Part shown: positions 17,764 to 22,846 of the stretch, in pieces | Numbering within the stretch: position 1 is the stretch's first letter | How the letters are laid out: every line of letters begins with the position of its first letter | Origin: Telmatocola sphagniphila | GTDB lineage: Bacteria; Planctomycetota; Planctomycetia; Gemmatales; Gemmataceae | Reading direction: 5' to 3' | NCBI RefSeq assembly: GCF_018398935.1 | Contig: NZ_CP074694.1 | Location: 2,910,001-2,942,000 of the forward strand | DNA: 32,000 bases | Made by a program: the position numbers and the translations under genes | Notes under the pieces: model-generated | Told to the model about the DNA's origin: nothing | The model's database searches: none | Seen by the model: only the letters and a program-made list of their open reading frames with translations

Positions 17764-18318
17764 TTACTTGCCCGATTTGGGGGCGAGCATGGCCGTCATA
17801 CGCTTGCCTTCGAGCGAAGGGGGCTTTTCGACTTTGGAACAGTCGACTAGCTTTTCGAGAATCATTTTTATGATTCTCTGGCCTTCTTCGATATGCTGCA
17901 TTTCGCGACCGCGGAACATCACGTTCACCTGCACCTTATCGTGGTGTTCAAGGAACTTGCGAGCCTGGGCCACTTTAGTATCGATGTCATGTTCGCCCGT
18001 TTTGGGTCGGACGCGAATTTCTTTGACCTTCTGCTGATGCGCTTTCGCTTTCCCGCTCTTACGAGTCTGCTCGTAACGAAATTTCCCGTAATCCATGAGC
18101 TTACAGACCGGGGGACGTTCGCTGGCGGAGACTTCCACCAGGTCCAACCCCTGATCGCGAGCCATCATCATGGCCTCGGCCGTTGGCACAATACCGTGTT
18201 GCTCGCCGTTGGCGCCAATTAATCGGATGGGAGAGAGCCGGATTTGTTCATTAATACGAGGATTATTGCGGTCACCCGGACGCGGTGGGGCGTTGCGGTC
18301 ACGATCGAACGGAGGAAT
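17764..18318 (-). CDS. infC: translation initiation factor IF-3, initiating at AUU
   Basis: RINEQIRLSPIRLIGANGEQHGIV, DLVEVSASERPPVCKLMDYGKFRYE and MFRGREMQH are canonical IF3 blocks. The start was re-set to the ATT at 18316-18318, with AGGAGA 6 nt upstream. This gives about 184 aa, the normal IF3 size. Confidence 0.9.
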   Translation of the reverse strand: MPPFDRDRNAPPRPGDRNNPRINEQIRLSPIRLIGANGEQHGIVPTAEAMMMARDQGLDLVEVSASERPPVCKLMDYGKFRYEQTRKSGKAKAHQQKVKEIRVRPKTGEHDIDTKVAQARKFLEHHDKVQVNVMFRGREMQHIEEGQRIIKMILEKLVDCSKVEKPPSLEGKRMTAMLAPKSGK

Positions 18319-18330
18319 AAATGGTCTCCT
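18316..18330 (-). promoter_or_regulatory. infC translation-initiation region: SD AGGAGA + 6 nt + AUU start codon
   Basis: The minus strand reads gacAGGAGAccatttATTcctccg. A non-canonical AUU start is the established IF3 autoregulatory feature in many bacteria. Confidence 0.6.
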
Positions 18331-18467
18331 GTCAAAGAAATAAAGTAAAACCCAAGAACCTCTTCGGTCACTGTTACTCTTATGTCTAACTGCCGTTTGA
18401 CCTTTTGTCAACGGGTTTATTTGCATAGTTTAATACAAGGCGGAAATTTCGTCGCAAAGGAGGCTCC

Positions 18468-19289
18468 GTGCCAGAACTTCCCGAAGTGGAAACGGTCGTC
18501 CGGGATTTGCGCCCGGAACTGATCGGTCGACAGCTTGGTAGAATCCACCGCAGTGCCCGGAATCTGCGCCGAAAATGGCAGCCCGAGTGGGATCTGCAAA
18601 TCACCGGACGCAAGATTCAAGCGATAAATCGCCGGGGAAAATGGATTCATATCGCTCTGGACACCGGCCCTTATCTGGTGGTTCACCTGGGGATGACCGG
18701 CCAGTTGCAGGTCCACGGTCAAGCGATCTCCATACCCGCTCATACCCATCTGCGAATGGAACTCGATTCGGGCGAGCGGGAATTACGCTTCACCGATATC
18801 CGGCGATTCGGCAGTTTTCAATTTTTTCAAAATCTGAGCGACTGGGAAAGTTCGGTCACCGAACCACTGGGGCCAGAGCCTTGGGATTTGACCCCGGAAT
18901 ATTGGAAAGAGAAGCTGAAAAAGGCGAATCGAAACCTCAAAGCCCTTCTTTTGGATCAGTCGATTGTGGCCGGGGTGGGCAACATTTATGCCGACGAATC
19001 CCTATTTCACGCGGGCATTCATCCCACTACTCTGGCCAGCCAATTATCCGCCCGCCGCGGCGAAAAGCTCCGGCAGTCGGTCGTGGAGATACTCACCCGG
19101 GCCATCGAGTTGCGAGGGTCGACCATCCGCAACTACGTGGGCGGTTCCGGTCTCAAAGGGGGCTATCAGGATGCCTTTTTCGTTTACGGCCGTACCAATC
19201 AGCCTTGTTTGAAATGCTCAAAACCGATTGAATGTATCCGCTTGGCGGGACGATCCACTCATTATTGCCCCCGTTGTCAGAAAGCTTGA
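18468..19289 (+). CDS. mutM: formamidopyrimidine-DNA glycosylase (Fpg/MutM)
   Basis: GTG start after AAGGAGG. N-terminal PELPEVE with the catalytic Pro2, an H2TH region, and a C-terminal CxxC...CxxC zinc finger (CLKC...CPRC). Confidence 0.95.
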   Translation: MPELPEVETVVRDLRPELIGRQLGRIHRSARNLRRKWQPEWDLQITGRKIQAINRRGKWIHIALDTGPYLVVHLGMTGQLQVHGQAISIPAHTHLRMELDSGERELRFTDIRRFGSFQFFQNLSDWESSVTEPLGPEPWDLTPEYWKEKLKKANRNLKALLLDQSIVAGVGNIYADESLFHAGIHPTTLASQLSARRGEKLRQSVVEILTRAIELRGSTIRNYVGGSGLKGGYQDAFFVYGRTNQPCLKCSKPIECIRLAGRSTHYCPRCQKA

Positions 19290-19292
19290 AGC

Positions 19293-20945
19293 ATGTCCTA
19301 TCGGACGTTGAAAAATCTCCTGGGCGAGAATAACCTCGAGCGCAAGTGCCGAATTCTCTTCGGCGTATCGACGCTCTGCCTGATTACATTCAGCTTCTGG
19401 ATTTTCGCCCGCCAAACCGAAGAACTAGCCTTCAATCAAACCGAACAGACGGCGAAGGTTCTGGTTCCCCTGATTCTCACGAGTTACCACACCGATCAGA
19501 ACAAAAAAGGCGCGATGCTCGATCTTCAAAGCCGTTTCGAGGATCAATGGCAGGACAAGTATCGCAAATACAAATTCCGCCTCATCAAACCGAATGCCCG
19601 TCTGGCGGAGCATAAGGCCGAAGGACTCGAAGTTCCCCTGCTCGCCGATTACGTTGCCAACCCCGAAAAACAGGAAATCTTCTCGCGAAGTACGAATTCC
19701 GACATTCTGACATACATCGCTCCCATTCGTGCTTCAAATAGCTGCATCGCCTGCCACAACGAGATTGAAAAAAAACACAACGGCCAGGAAATTGCGGATA
19801 ACGATCTCATGGCCCTCCTGAAGATCCAATTCGACACCGAAGGGATTGAGGACAGCGTGCATTCCAACCGGGCCATGCTCATCACCATCGCCCTGGTGAC
19901 TTCGCTGATCCTTATGGGGGGAAGCTATGTGATTATCCGATACGTGATAGTGAAGCCGCTCCGCCATTTGAAAGAAGTCAGTGATGCCATTACGGAAGGC
20001 AAGACCAACGTTCGGGCGGAAATCCAAACCGGAGACGAATTCGAGGATCTCAGCATTGCTTTCAATCGGATGTTGCGAAAATTGATGGAGGCCCGGGATA
20101 AAGCGAATGATTTGAATGCCAGCCTGGATAAGAAGGTGGATGATTTAGCCCGGGCCAACCTGCTGCTGGTAGAATCCGACCGCAGCAAAAGCGACTTTTT
20201 GGCAACCATTAGCCATGAGTTGAGAACGCCTTTGAACAGTATTCTGGGATTCAGCGATGTACTGCTTTCCAATACCGGCAGTCTGAATGAAAAGCAGGCA
20301 CGCTGGATAGCCAACATTAAAAGCAACGGTCAGCAGTTGCTGAACCTCATCAACGACATTCTCGATTTGGCGAAGATCGAGGCCGGGCGCATGGAAATTC
20401 GCTCGGACGACATCTCCCTGACCGAACTCTGCGAAAATCAAATTGCGATGGTCCGTTCCCTCTCGGAAAGAAAGCGCATCGACCTGCGCACCCGATACGA
20501 TTCGGTAGTCCCGCTAATCAAGCAGGATAGCGTCAAGCTCCGGCAAATTCTTTCAAATCTGTTGAGCAATGCGGTGAAGTTTTCACCCGAGGGAGGGCGG
20601 GTAATCCTCTCGGTCGAAGTGAAAGACGAAAAATTGATCCTGGCGGTCACCGATAATGGCATTGGGATCGCCCCAGCCGATCAGGAAGTCATTTTCGAAA
20701 AGTTCCGGCAGTCGGGTTCGATTCTCACCCGCGAACACGAAGGCAGCGGTCTGGGTCTGTCGATTGTTCGCGAAATGTGTAAACTTCTGGGCGGTACCGT
20801 CACCCTGAAAAGCGAACTGGGTCGCGGCAGCGCCTTCACCATCACTTTGCCTACCACGGTTCGCGACGGTTCCCGTTACGACTTTGTGCTCCCCAATGCC
20901 GATAGCCACGCCAAATCCAAATCGATAAGTCGGGAGACCGTGTGA
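19293..20945 (+). CDS. membrane sensor histidine kinase with a periplasmic CxxCH (c-type heme, DUF3365/Tll0287-like) sensor domain, HAMP, HisKA and HATPase_c
   Basis: 550 aa. TM1 is ILFGVSTLCLITFSFWIFA. The periplasmic region of about 170 aa contains CIACH (nt 19743-19757). TM2 is AMLITIALVTSLILMGGSYVII. H-box is SHELRTPLN. The N and G boxes are NLLSNAVKF, DNGIGI and GSGLGLSI. No response regulator is in the window. Confidence 0.9.
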   Translation: MSYRTLKNLLGENNLERKCRILFGVSTLCLITFSFWIFARQTEELAFNQTEQTAKVLVPLILTSYHTDQNKKGAMLDLQSRFEDQWQDKYRKYKFRLIKPNARLAEHKAEGLEVPLLADYVANPEKQEIFSRSTNSDILTYIAPIRASNSCIACHNEIEKKHNGQEIADNDLMALLKIQFDTEGIEDSVHSNRAMLITIALVTSLILMGGSYVIIRYVIVKPLRHLKEVSDAITEGKTNVRAEIQTGDEFEDLSIAFNRMLRKLMEARDKANDLNASLDKKVDDLARANLLLVESDRSKSDFLATISHELRTPLNSILGFSDVLLSNTGSLNEKQARWIANIKSNGQQLLNLINDILDLAKIEAGRMEIRSDDISLTELCENQIAMVRSLSERKRIDLRTRYDSVVPLIKQDSVKLRQILSNLLSNAVKFSPEGGRVILSVEVKDEKLILAVTDNGIGIAPADQEVIFEKFRQSGSILTREHEGSGLGLSIVREMCKLLGGTVTLKSELGRGSAFTITLPTTVRDGSRYDFVLPNADSHAKSKSISRETV

Positions 20946-21646
20946 ATCCCCTTTCGGCCCACGCCTGGGATGTCAGCACGGCTGAAGCCGTAATCATCCA
21001 GAACGATCTGGCCCATAAAGTCCGAACCGAACCGCTCCCCTCCCCCGTCCGAGTCATTGCGGGGATGGATGTCAGCTACAATCGATTTTCCGATCTGCTG
21101 TTCGCATCCATCGTCGTTCTCAGTTTCCCGGAACTGGAAGTACTGGAGATCCAGAACGCGAGCCGGCAGACGCACTTCCCCTACCAGTCGGGCTTTCTCT
21201 CGTTTCGCGAGGCACCGGTGCTGCTAGAAGCGTTCGGACAGCTCCGGCAGAAAGTCGATCTGGCTTTTCTCGACGGCCAAGGGATCGCCCATCCAAGAGG
21301 GTTAGGGATCGCCAGCCACGTGGGAGTCTTACTGGATCTTCCGACTATCGGAGTGGGCAAATCGAAACTGTTCGGGCAGTACACCGATCCGGGTCCTGAG
21401 GCAGGCGACTGGTCCGACTTGACGTACAAAGGGAAAATTCTCGGGGCGGTGTTGCGGACGAAAAGAAACGTCTCCTGCGTCTACGTTTCCATCGGGCATC
21501 GGGCGGTGTTAGCAAGTGCTATCGAACTGGTTATGCGGTGCGTTCGCAAGCATCGTATTCCGGAACCGACACGTTTGGCTCATGAAGCGGTCAATCAGTT
21601 TCGTCGAGAGCATTCCGCTGGCGATTCGCAAGAGGACGCTTCGTAG
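20942..21646 (+). CDS. nfi: endonuclease V (deoxyinosine 3' endonuclease)
   Basis: 234 aa. The blocks GMDVSY, SGFLSFREAPVLLEAF, DGQGIAHPRGLGIASHVGV and PTIGVGKS are canonical Nfi. The GTG start overlaps the kinase stop (GTGA). Confidence 0.9.
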   Translation: MNPLSAHAWDVSTAEAVIIQNDLAHKVRTEPLPSPVRVIAGMDVSYNRFSDLLFASIVVLSFPELEVLEIQNASRQTHFPYQSGFLSFREAPVLLEAFGQLRQKVDLAFLDGQGIAHPRGLGIASHVGVLLDLPTIGVGKSKLFGQYTDPGPEAGDWSDLTYKGKILGAVLRTKRNVSCVYVSIGHRAVLASAIELVMRCVRKHRIPEPTRLAHEAVNQFRREHSAGDSQEDAS

Positions 21647-22005: not shown

Positions 22006-22251
22006 ATGCCTGACAACGGTTTTCGCAAATCGCCGAGAAAGCGATTTAGCTTTCTGACCAGCCAACTTGGGAAACGCGCCCGTTTCTCGGGGAAACTGGC
22101 TCACAGCATTCAGGAGGAAAGCCGTGATTCCACTATACGCCAGGATCTTGTGCTTCGGGCACAGGAGAAAATCGCCATGGGGATTTACGATCATCCCTCG
22201 ATTTTAGAGCAAGCGTTCGATCGGATGCGGGAATCCCTGGAAACCCGATAA
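22006..22251 (+). CDS. possible anti-sigma-28 factor FlgM-family protein
   Basis: 81 aa. The C-terminal IRQDLVLRAQEKIAMGIYDHPSILEQAFDRM fits the FlgM C-terminal pattern (R..LV....I..G.Y......A..L). The N-terminus is basic and disordered-looking. A strong terminator follows. Confidence 0.4.
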   Translation: MPDNGFRKSPRKRFSFLTSQLGKRARFSGKLAHSIQEESRDSTIRQDLVLRAQEKIAMGIYDHPSILEQAFDRMRESLETR

Positions 22252-22269
22252 GATTAAAAAACGATAAAA

Positions 22270-22309
22270 CGGCAGCCAATCGGCCAATCCGATTGGCTGC
22301 CGTTTTTTT
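22270..22309 (+). terminator. rho-independent terminator (14-bp perfect stem, 5-nt loop, T7 tail)
   Basis: cggcagccaatcgg ccaat ccgattggctgccg ttttttt. It is preceded by an A4 run. Confidence 0.85.
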
Positions 22310-22357: not shown

Positions 22358-22846
22358 GTGCCGCTCCCCTCCGTCTCTGTTTCTCAAACTCCCGAAGAGA
22401 AATTTCGGGAGTTCCTGACCTCCCGGGCGAAGGCCCAGCGCTACACCGATCAGCAGCGCGATCTCGTGCGCTTTATTTTCGAAAAACACAATCATTTCGA
22501 TGCCGAGCAACTCGTCGATGACCTGAAAGCCGGGGGCTTGAAGATCAGCCGGGCGACCATCTACCGCACTCTGACCAAACTCGTGGAAGCCGGAATGCTC
22601 CGCCGGTTGGAAGTCGGCCTGCGAACCTACTATGAACACGACTACGGCTACCCGCAGCACGATCACCTCGTCTGCGAAAGCTGCAACAAGATCATCGAGT
22701 TTCAGAATCCCCAACTCGAAGCAGTTGTCGCAGCCGTCTGTGCCGCCGAATCCTTCCAGCACGCCAGTCATTCCTTATTGATCCGGGGGACCTGCCTGGA
22801 ATGCAATAAGGCTCGTTCGAACAAACGAAAACTGGATCTTATTTAG
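22358..22846 (+). CDS. Fur-family metalloregulator (Fur/Zur/PerR; subtype unresolved)
   Basis: 162 aa. Winged-helix block ISRATIYRTLTKLVEAGMLRRLE, HDHLVCESC, and a second CxxC (CLEC) forming the structural Zn site. The GTG start is uncertain. Confidence 0.85.
   Translation: MPLPSVSVSQTPEEKFREFLTSRAKAQRYTDQQRDLVRFIFEKHNHFDAEQLVDDLKAGGLKISRATIYRTLTKLVEAGMLRRLEVGLRTYYEHDYGYPQHDHLVCESCNKIIEFQNPQLEAVVAAVCAAESFQHASHSLLIRGTCLECNKARSNKRKLDLI

Follow-up and report, generated by a model that had tools for sequence, protein, structure and literature searches.

The locus analysed here belongs to Telmatocola sphagniphila, a peat-bog planctomycete of the family Gemmataceae, and lies in a stretch of 32,000 nucleotides (contig NZ_CP074694.1, positions 2,910,001 to 2,942,000), hereafter the window, whose positions are counted from its first letter. 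Three genes follow each other there on the same strand, i.e. fpg (mutM), encoding formamidopyrimidine-DNA glycosylase, a gene encoding a transmembrane sensor histidine kinase with a c-type heme motif (the heme kinase), and nfi, encoding endonuclease V. An original prediction, made from the letters of this stretch, had read the arrangement as a redox, O2 or NO sensor linked genetically to the repair of base lesions. We identified the sensor domain, assessed the conservation of the locus among relatives and examined candidates for the output partner of the kinase. The periplasmic domain is assigned to the Tll0287/DUF3365 family, now named sCache_heme, the fpg-kinase pair stands out as an ancient and unusually persistent linkage, and its conservation suggests that the sensor may be tied to DNA maintenance.

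The gene cluster and its heme-c sensor kinase

Only 3 nt separate the fpg stop codon from the kinase ATG, and the kinase stop codon overlaps the nfi start in the four nucleotides GTGA (Table 1). The sequence AAGGAGG stands at 18457-18463, ahead of the fpg GTG. At the kinase/nfi junction, a GGGAG Shine-Dalgarno sequence lies 5 nt before the overlapping nfi GTG, so that the layout is classical for translational coupling; this start is backed by a homologous N-terminus in the relative L048 (MDIPRLHDW vs MNPLSAHAW). Consensus scans found neither a terminator-like hairpin on the + strand between 18468 and 22265 nor a sigma-70-like promoter within the cluster, the first terminator-like site being at 22266. 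The three genes are packed as one putative operon, in which nfi would be translationally coupled to the kinase; the original prediction had described the same packing, and the positions that it gave for the three genes, the GTGA overlap and the CIACH heme motif all hold.

Both flanking genes were assigned at the equivalog level of NCBIfam. Fpg scored 292.2 bits with NF002211 (cut-off 212) and 286.7 bits with TIGR00577 (cut-off 203.3), and has three Pfam domains, a PELPEVE N-terminus and a C-terminal zinc finger. Nfi scored 243.5 bits with NF008629 (equivalog cut-off 230) and 238 bits with PF04493. Each is the top-scoring copy in the genome, among two Fpg/Nei genes and two Endonuclease_5 matches, respectively.

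The kinase is organised as N-terminal tail (N-tail), first transmembrane segment (TM1), sCache_heme, second transmembrane segment (TM2), HAMP, HisKA and HATPase_c. According to hydropathy, hydrophobic segments at residues ~19-40 and ~193-220 enclose the heme motif and the N-tail is rich in K/R, from which we infer that residues 41-190 are extracytoplasmic, i.e. periplasmic. Pfam recognised PF11845 (Tll0287-like, residues 82-163) at 36.5 bits against a cut-off of 24.1, the search that the original prediction had proposed for this domain, as well as HAMP (40.6 bits), HisKA (79 bits) and HATPase_c (113.3 bits). The phospho-acceptor H308 and the N, G1, F and G2 boxes are invariant in the ortholog alignment; with HAMP, a DHp domain containing the His and an ATP-binding domain, the protein is classified as a HisKA-type kinase.

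The assignment of the sensor to the Tll0287/DUF3365 c-heme type, already suspected in the original prediction, is borne out jointly by Pfam, profile comparison, AlphaFold and Foldseek. A profile of 85 aligned distinct orthologous sensor domains matches PDB 5b82 (Tll0287) with E = 2.4e-5. In the AlphaFold model (pLDDT 86.8), CxxCH opens a helix (113-126, with C115, C118 and H119, in model numbering) that is set between strand 3 (102-110) and strand 4 (136-145), and the top Foldseek matches are 5b82 and 3b42 (Geobacter GSU0935), after which come PctD and WalK with their Cache domains. The label of heme-PAS sensor, also used at first, has to be dropped as the domain is now classed as Cache. A six-frame search of the genome retrieved a single Tll0287-like domain (39.2 bits).

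As the original prediction had anticipated, the motif is conserved: its two Cys and its His are invariant in 85/85 sensors, with CxxCH spacing in 82 and CX3CH or CX4CH in three, and the mean column identity of the rest of the domain is only 28 %. The variant motifs are CLIACH and CLYKCH (CX3CH), in Isosphaeraceae-labelled contigs (L098 6109-6696 and L099 6094-6657), and CMTSNCH (CX4CH), in a Gemmataceae metagenome-assembled genome (MAG; L041 6109-6684). Heme is thus predicted to be attached covalently to CIACH, and cytochrome-c assembly is available, with two Cytochrom_C_asm genes in the genome.

The DUF3365/Tll0287 family was redefined as sCache_heme in 2026 preprints from the Zhulin and Crane laboratories (bioRxiv 10.64898/2026.02.01.703092 and 10.64898/2026.05.25.727664). 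According to these two preprints, CxxCH is ~99 % conserved in the family and sCache_heme-HAMP-HisKA-HATPase is among the common architectures; in Pseudomonas azotoformans, a HAMP-linked member devoid of the Cys binds NO tightly, releases it slowly and makes no stable complex with O2, and a member that is stand-alone and Cys-ligated has the behaviour of a redox protein. In the window sensor, as in 57/85 orthologs, the motif Cys pair is the sole periplasmic Cys. Cys/His ligation of the Tll0287 type is therefore excluded and, having no axial cysteine, the sensor goes with the signalling, NO-binding branch; it further departs from the redox-type stand-alone branch by its fusion to HAMP and a kinase. 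By analogy, NO, or a redox change, may be the signal of the kinase. Two histidines were considered as distal heme ligand and neither was assigned: H66 is His in 80 % of orthologs and Leu in 18 %, and H190, which is invariant, stands at the membrane boundary.

Conservation is unevenly spread along the kinase. Over 104 orthologs, the majority-residue fraction is 0.92 in the N-tail (consensus MSYRxFKRLLGExSLERKCR), 0.87 in HAMP, 0.78 in DHp, 0.71 in the catalytic domain and 0.44 in the sensor. Third codon positions vary freely in the N-tail, so the constraint acts on the protein; for this reason, and because the 60 nt upstream are unconserved, the idea that the kinase start holds a conserved element of DNA or RNA was dropped. 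The conserved N-tail and HAMP together suggest a conserved cytoplasmic contact.

Table 1. Features of the fpg-kinase-nfi cluster and of the region 3' of it (window positions; residues are those of the kinase)
Feature	Position	Strand	Remark
fpg/mutM, formamidopyrimidine-DNA glycosylase, 273 aa	18468-19289	+	GTG start; stop TGA 19287-19289
Transmembrane sensor histidine kinase, 550 aa	19293-20945	+	ATG 19293; stop TGA 20943-20945
Predicted cytoplasmic N-tail, residues 1-20, MSYRTLKNLLGENNLERKCR	19293-19352	+	Most conserved part of the kinase
Predicted periplasmic sCache_heme (Tll0287/DUF3365) domain, residues 41-190	19413-19862	+	PF11845, profile match, model, Foldseek
CIACH c-heme motif, residues 151-155 (C151, C154, H155)	19743-19757	+	Invariant C, C, H
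H190-x-N-R-A at the sensor/TM2 boundary	19860-19874	+	Invariant, 85/85
HAMP, residues 217-268	19941-20096	+	Nearly invariant in orthologs
HisKA/DHp, phospho-acceptor H308 in SHELRTPLN (nt 20214-20216)	20184-20387	+	H-E-x-x-T motif there
HATPase_c catalytic domain	20526-20855	+	N, G1, F, G2 boxes
Putative coupling junction	20932-20945	+	GGGAG Shine-Dalgarno 20932-20936, 5-nt spacer, GTGA = nfi start/kinase stop overlap
nfi, endonuclease V, 234 aa	20942-21646	+	GTG start 20942-20944
Small ORF, 81 aa, FlgM-like C-terminal motif R-x-x-L-V-x-R-x-R-x-E-I-x-x-G-x-Y-D	22006-22251	+	
Bidirectional terminator-like hairpin, 18-bp stem	22266-22306	.	First one 3' of fpg-kinase-nfi
Fur-family regulator	22358-22846	+	Recurs 3' of the kinase within the window's subclade

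Conservation of the locus among planctomycetes

Full-length kinase orthologs (47-55 % identity) were found in 41/41 relatives, and the related loci carry the labels Gemmataceae, Gemmatales, Zavarzinella, Gemmata and Fimbriiglobus. Of 301 genomes sampled evenly across the phylum, only 19 yielded the sensor region, including all 15 of family f4, the single one of family f5 and two genomes of family f69. Synteny was established on non-redundant loci with enough flank by tblastn mapping of Fpg, Nfi, Fur and others, together with Pfam tallies; these replaced a naive clustering of flanking open reading frames (ORFs), which was polluted by antisense shadow ORFs in GC-rich DNA.

Directly upstream of the kinase, and in the same orientation, fpg was found at 68/82 genome loci and at 53/59 independent metagenome loci, i.e. 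121/141 in total (~86 %), so that the adjacency is not a peculiarity of this genome, the outcome on which the original prediction would have fallen. It extends outside the family, to the Isosphaeraceae-labelled L098 and L099 and to L108-L110 (3/16 other-order loci), and the fpg copies of these outside loci are nearer to the window fpg than to the second Fpg/Nei gene of the genome. As a yardstick, trpB-fpg adjacency (divergent trpB) was found in 26/51 loci and in none of the outgroups. The kinase tree indicates that fpg upstream is the ancestral state, with scattered losses; it groups the window's kinase with a clade including Zavarzinella sequences at weak support (26). The trpB-trpA pair is divergent from fpg in about half of the relatives, and infC holds that place in the window (17764-18467).

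The downstream side differs. Both nfi and the Fur-family gene are confined, 3' of the kinase, to one subclade that includes the window (support 87) and are scattered within it, from which the order fpg-kinase-nfi-(flgM-like)-fur is probably ancestral to that subclade. Endonuclease V follows the kinase in the window, L048, L066 and L093, more distantly in L068, L092 and L094, and in 0/56 metagenome loci; the kinase/nfi overlap is specific to the window genome, the gaps elsewhere being 146-239 nt. Of the mutM-kinase-nfi synteny put forward in the original prediction, the first pair is thus widely kept and the full triad belongs to the window's subclade. In the two Gemmata loci L092 and L094, the fpg match is split into residues 1-67 and 70-272, ~220-280 nt apart, which suggests an insertion of 70-90 residues or a disruption. 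The 81-aa FlgM-like ORF, without Pfam or NCBIfam match, is kept ahead of the Fur-family gene in L021, L081, L082 and L095. The subtype of the latter (PerR, Fur, Irr or Zur) was not assigned as its best NCBIfam matches are all far under the cut-offs. Terminator-like hairpins were seen in 3/72 fpg-kinase gaps and 4/69 post-kinase regions of the relatives, in a scan that is uninformative in GC-rich genomes.

Other DNA-maintenance genes have been recruited repeatedly beside the same kinase. In a Pfam tally of the gene directly downstream in 70 loci, RecG was counted five times, and endonuclease V, an NtrC-type regulator and Fur three times each; tblastn placed recG ~0.9-1.1 kb downstream in two further genome loci, and recG comes after the kinase in 10/56 metagenome loci. 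Where fpg is missing, the order is priA-kinase-rnhA in L097 and priA-kinase-rnhA-recG in L113, which belongs to a different family; mutL is divergent from the kinase by 64 nt in Fimbriiglobus (L090, L091), a PolX polymerase lies 2.2 kb upstream in L103, and, in a Fimbriiglobus MAG (L086 4590-5825), a DUF790 (PF05626) protein is encoded divergently from the kinase. We take DUF790 to be Bax1, the nuclease partner of XPB-type helicases.

A candidate output regulator linked to mutL

No REC domain was detectable in the window (tblastn, best E = 6.2), and the original prediction was right that it holds no response regulator. The best candidate comes from one Gemmata clade, in which an NtrC-type regulator (REC, sigma-54 activation domain and HTH_8) follows the kinase in four loci (L018, L065, L067 and L075). 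Its single ortholog in the window genome (G000 C1:3128648-3130177, 61 % identity, next best 37-41 %) carries GAFTGA and lies ~200 kb away, ending 5 nt before mutL. The pair covers C1:3126787-3130177 (L122 4787-8178, minus strand), and an HD-domain gene is transcribed divergently from it. The order regulator-then-mutL is found in 20/29 relatives and in G230, from another family, and 39/41 relatives have just one copy of the regulator. In 30 Gemmatales loci, it has no other kinase beside it.

The window genome possesses rpoN, ~18 kb upstream of the window and between two further NtrC-type regulators, each adjoining a kinase-like match (C1:2883375-2903630 and 2891821-2892297); sigma-54 machinery is locally concentrated around it.

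The fpg-kinase and the regulator-mutL module are each firmly joined to repair genes, and they meet in two lineages, i.e. the Gemmata clade (kinase-regulator) and Fimbriiglobus (mutL-kinase). We consider the odds that the NtrC-type regulator is the partner of the heme kinase to be roughly even.

Interpretation and comparison with known systems

The persistence of the fpg-kinase pair, together with recG, priA-rnhA and mutL beside the kinase in other lineages, leads us to read the heme kinase as tied to DNA maintenance, acting as an outward sensor for agents that oxidise or deaminate bases; we give this reading a probability of about 0.55. In this reading the kinase is a transmembrane protein of dimeric type, whose input is a c-heme single-Cache domain devoid of the axial cysteine of redox-type members. 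The single signalling member characterised so far binds NO, and by analogy NO is the most likely small ligand of its ferrous heme; alternatively, the kinase would respond to a shift in the redox state of the periplasm. Either signal would travel by way of the H-x-N-R-A/TM2 segment, which is invariant, and of HAMP, which nearly is, to set the autophosphorylation of H308. The kinase gene would be co-transcribed with fpg and translationally coupled to nfi, and the orphan NtrC-type sigma-54 activator directly upstream of mutL is the best candidate for the output; both the regulatory coupling to repair and the identity of the regulator are inferred. In Salmonella, base excision repair including Fpg and Nfi counters NO damage, and NO-derived species make lesions that they handle (PMC2680585), which makes a link of the sensor to nitrosative and oxidative lesions plausible.

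One can go further and see the kinase as the periplasmic front end of a damage-anticipating circuit, in which NO or an oxidant would act through the mutL-linked sigma-54 activator, perhaps with the small soluble kinase described below, to raise fpg, nfi, recG, priA/rnhA and mutL before lesions accumulate, in parallel to LexA, with the N-tail and HAMP docking a further cytoplasmic partner. We regard this extension as distinctly improbable in its entirety. A missing LexA was ruled out as an explanation, as lexA is present in the genome.

Several observations weigh against a tie between the heme kinase and DNA maintenance, or against the regulator proposed for it. NO binding has been demonstrated in one distant family member only. 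The gene after the kinase is variable and mostly unrelated to repair, and the enrichment of DNA-related neighbours is only moderate and suggestive: a rough count gives 9 of ~63 flanking arrangements, with P ~0.004 at an assumed background of 5 % DNA-related genes and 0.06 at 8 %. The median fpg-kinase gap of 98 nt in relatives (range 15-571) leaves room for separate promoters. Concerning the regulator, its lineage (45-55 % identity matches) is present in 299/301 planctomycete genomes vs 19/301 for the kinase, and the phyletic profile was dropped as support for the pair on this account. Ahead of it, G110 and G230 encode a small soluble kinase resembling NtrB, and the H-box of the heme kinase, SHELRTPLN, resembles those of hybrid and phosphorelay kinases rather than NtrB. 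Finally, sigma-54 promoters (TGGCAC-N5-TTGCW, GG/GC core) upstream of fpg (69 loci), of the kinase and of the regulator (30 loci) scored as shuffled sequence, with no sign of autoregulation.

The small NtrB-like kinase (238-269 aa) offers the regulator a partner of its own, so the heme kinase may not be the one. In two genomes of other families, its gene stands between pnp and the regulator, at L157 (596-4170), where mutL comes next, and at L154 (587-2892); G230 thus has an unbroken run of small kinase, regulator and mutL, and G110 one of the first two. The G000 ortholog is an orphan at C1:1733960-1734628 (1.73 Mb), beside aldolase and non-ribosomal peptide synthetase (NRPS) genes. The heme kinase would then use another regulator, and the adjacency in the Gemmata clade would be a single chance rearrangement, which fits its restriction to one clade, hence to one event, and the phylum-wide spread of the NtrC-type lineage. 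Yet the only regulator copy of G019 adjoins the heme kinase, chance relocation beside one given gene among ~6000 has a small probability, mutL as usual neighbour of the regulator adjoins the kinase in Fimbriiglobus, and the 30 Gemmatales loci offer no other flanking kinase; we place this alternative slightly below even odds. The main rival to a DNA-maintenance role is a shared operon without a shared pathway, in which the heme-c sensor would control, for instance, respiration or the envelope, and fpg, nfi, recG and mutL would be low-abundance constitutive genes under the same weak promoter, the pair being inherited vertically. The mostly non-repair character of the downstream neighbour would be expected from it, as would the unrelated trpBA staying beside fpg in half of the loci; besides, neither a cognate regulator nor a regulated promoter has been linked to the locus and the P value of the enrichment depends on the assumed background. 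It accounts less well for a pair that is kept in 121/141 loci and across orders, beyond what trpB-fpg reaches, for several different repair and replication-restart genes recruited independently beside the kinase, and for the fact that the sole regulator found adjoining it itself pairs with mutL. On balance we hold it to be unlikely, while taking it seriously.

Another view would make the protein a replication or cell-cycle checkpoint kinase, with N-tail and HAMP docking a cytoplasmic partner and with neighbours (priA, recG, rnhA, mutL, xerD-like and fpg) that speak of replication restart and chromosome handling rather than of a response to base damage. A single-copy gene that is near-universal in Gemmatales (41/41), more conserved in its N-tail and HAMP than in its catalytic core, and accompanied by priA, rnhA, recG and a XerD-like recombinase, could be read in this way. 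However, a periplasmic heme sensor is an odd input for the cell cycle, the gene most often beside the kinase encodes a base-excision glycosylase, only 19 of the 301 genomes sampled yielded the kinase, which was thus not found in most planctomycete families, and no cell-cycle regulator is linked to it; we judge this view very improbable.

Only since 2026 have sCache_heme domains been known to form a large family of c-heme sensors that bind NO. The type of sensor is thus already known and the window kinase is a new member of it, of the kinase type, for which no physiological output has been described. Neither preprint mentions planctomycetes, fpg or DNA repair, and our literature search found no description of the conserved embedding of such a kinase, with a possible regulator, among repair genes; the original prediction, which knew of no report of the arrangement, was therefore right for the gene neighbourhood and superseded for the sensor family. 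The window and more than 140 related loci yield a testable hypothesis, i.e. that a sensor is tied to the repair of base lesions caused by NO or oxidants. If true, this would be a rare case of DNA repair having a two-component system of its own, one that detects a genotoxic agent outside the cell instead of the damage itself. If false, the locus would warn that two genes may remain neighbours across bacterial orders without a common pathway.

Several known systems share part of this design. H-NOX/HnoK and NosP/NahK, as presented in the two preprints, also couple heme-based perception of NO to a histidine kinase. Their sensors, in contrast, are separate cytoplasmic heme-b proteins and their outputs are biofilm formation and c-di-GMP. 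To our knowledge, no such system is linked to DNA-repair genes. The candidate partner has the organisation of NtrB/NtrC regulators, i.e. REC, sigma-54 AAA+ with GAFTGA and HTH_8, in a genome with rpoN, but the heme kinase sits in the membrane and its H-box is not of the NtrB kind, the small NtrB-like kinase is a separate protein and the loci show no sigma-54 promoters. Geobacter sulfurreducens GSU0582/GSU0935 (PDB 3B47/3B42), the second-best fold match, likewise carry a periplasmic c-heme sensor in a transmembrane signalling protein; their output is methyl-accepting chemotaxis and the superposition is poor (rmsd ~12 Å). The best profile and fold match, with the c-heme motif at the same structural position, is Tll0287 of Thermosynechococcus (PDB 5B82), a stand-alone soluble protein with Cys/His ligation that is thought to be redox-active, unlike the window sensor, which has no such Cys; only ~100 residues align, at 19 % identity and a TM-score of ~0.42.

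The nearest parallel is the Cache_heme-HAMP receptor of P. azotoformans, which has no kinase domain of its own and, according to the second preprint, signals via a Ser/Thr kinase encoded in the operon and bound to HAMP. The window protein is by contrast an intrinsic histidine kinase, whose core comes after HAMP, and the 25 Pfam families most frequent in its 70 downstream neighbours include no Ser/Thr kinase. Its conserved N-tail and HAMP, for which no partner was identified, are nonetheless reminiscent of this docking arrangement, and the two proteins have in common a periplasmic single-Cache domain with CxxCH on an inserted helix, two transmembrane segments followed by HAMP, and no axial Cys.

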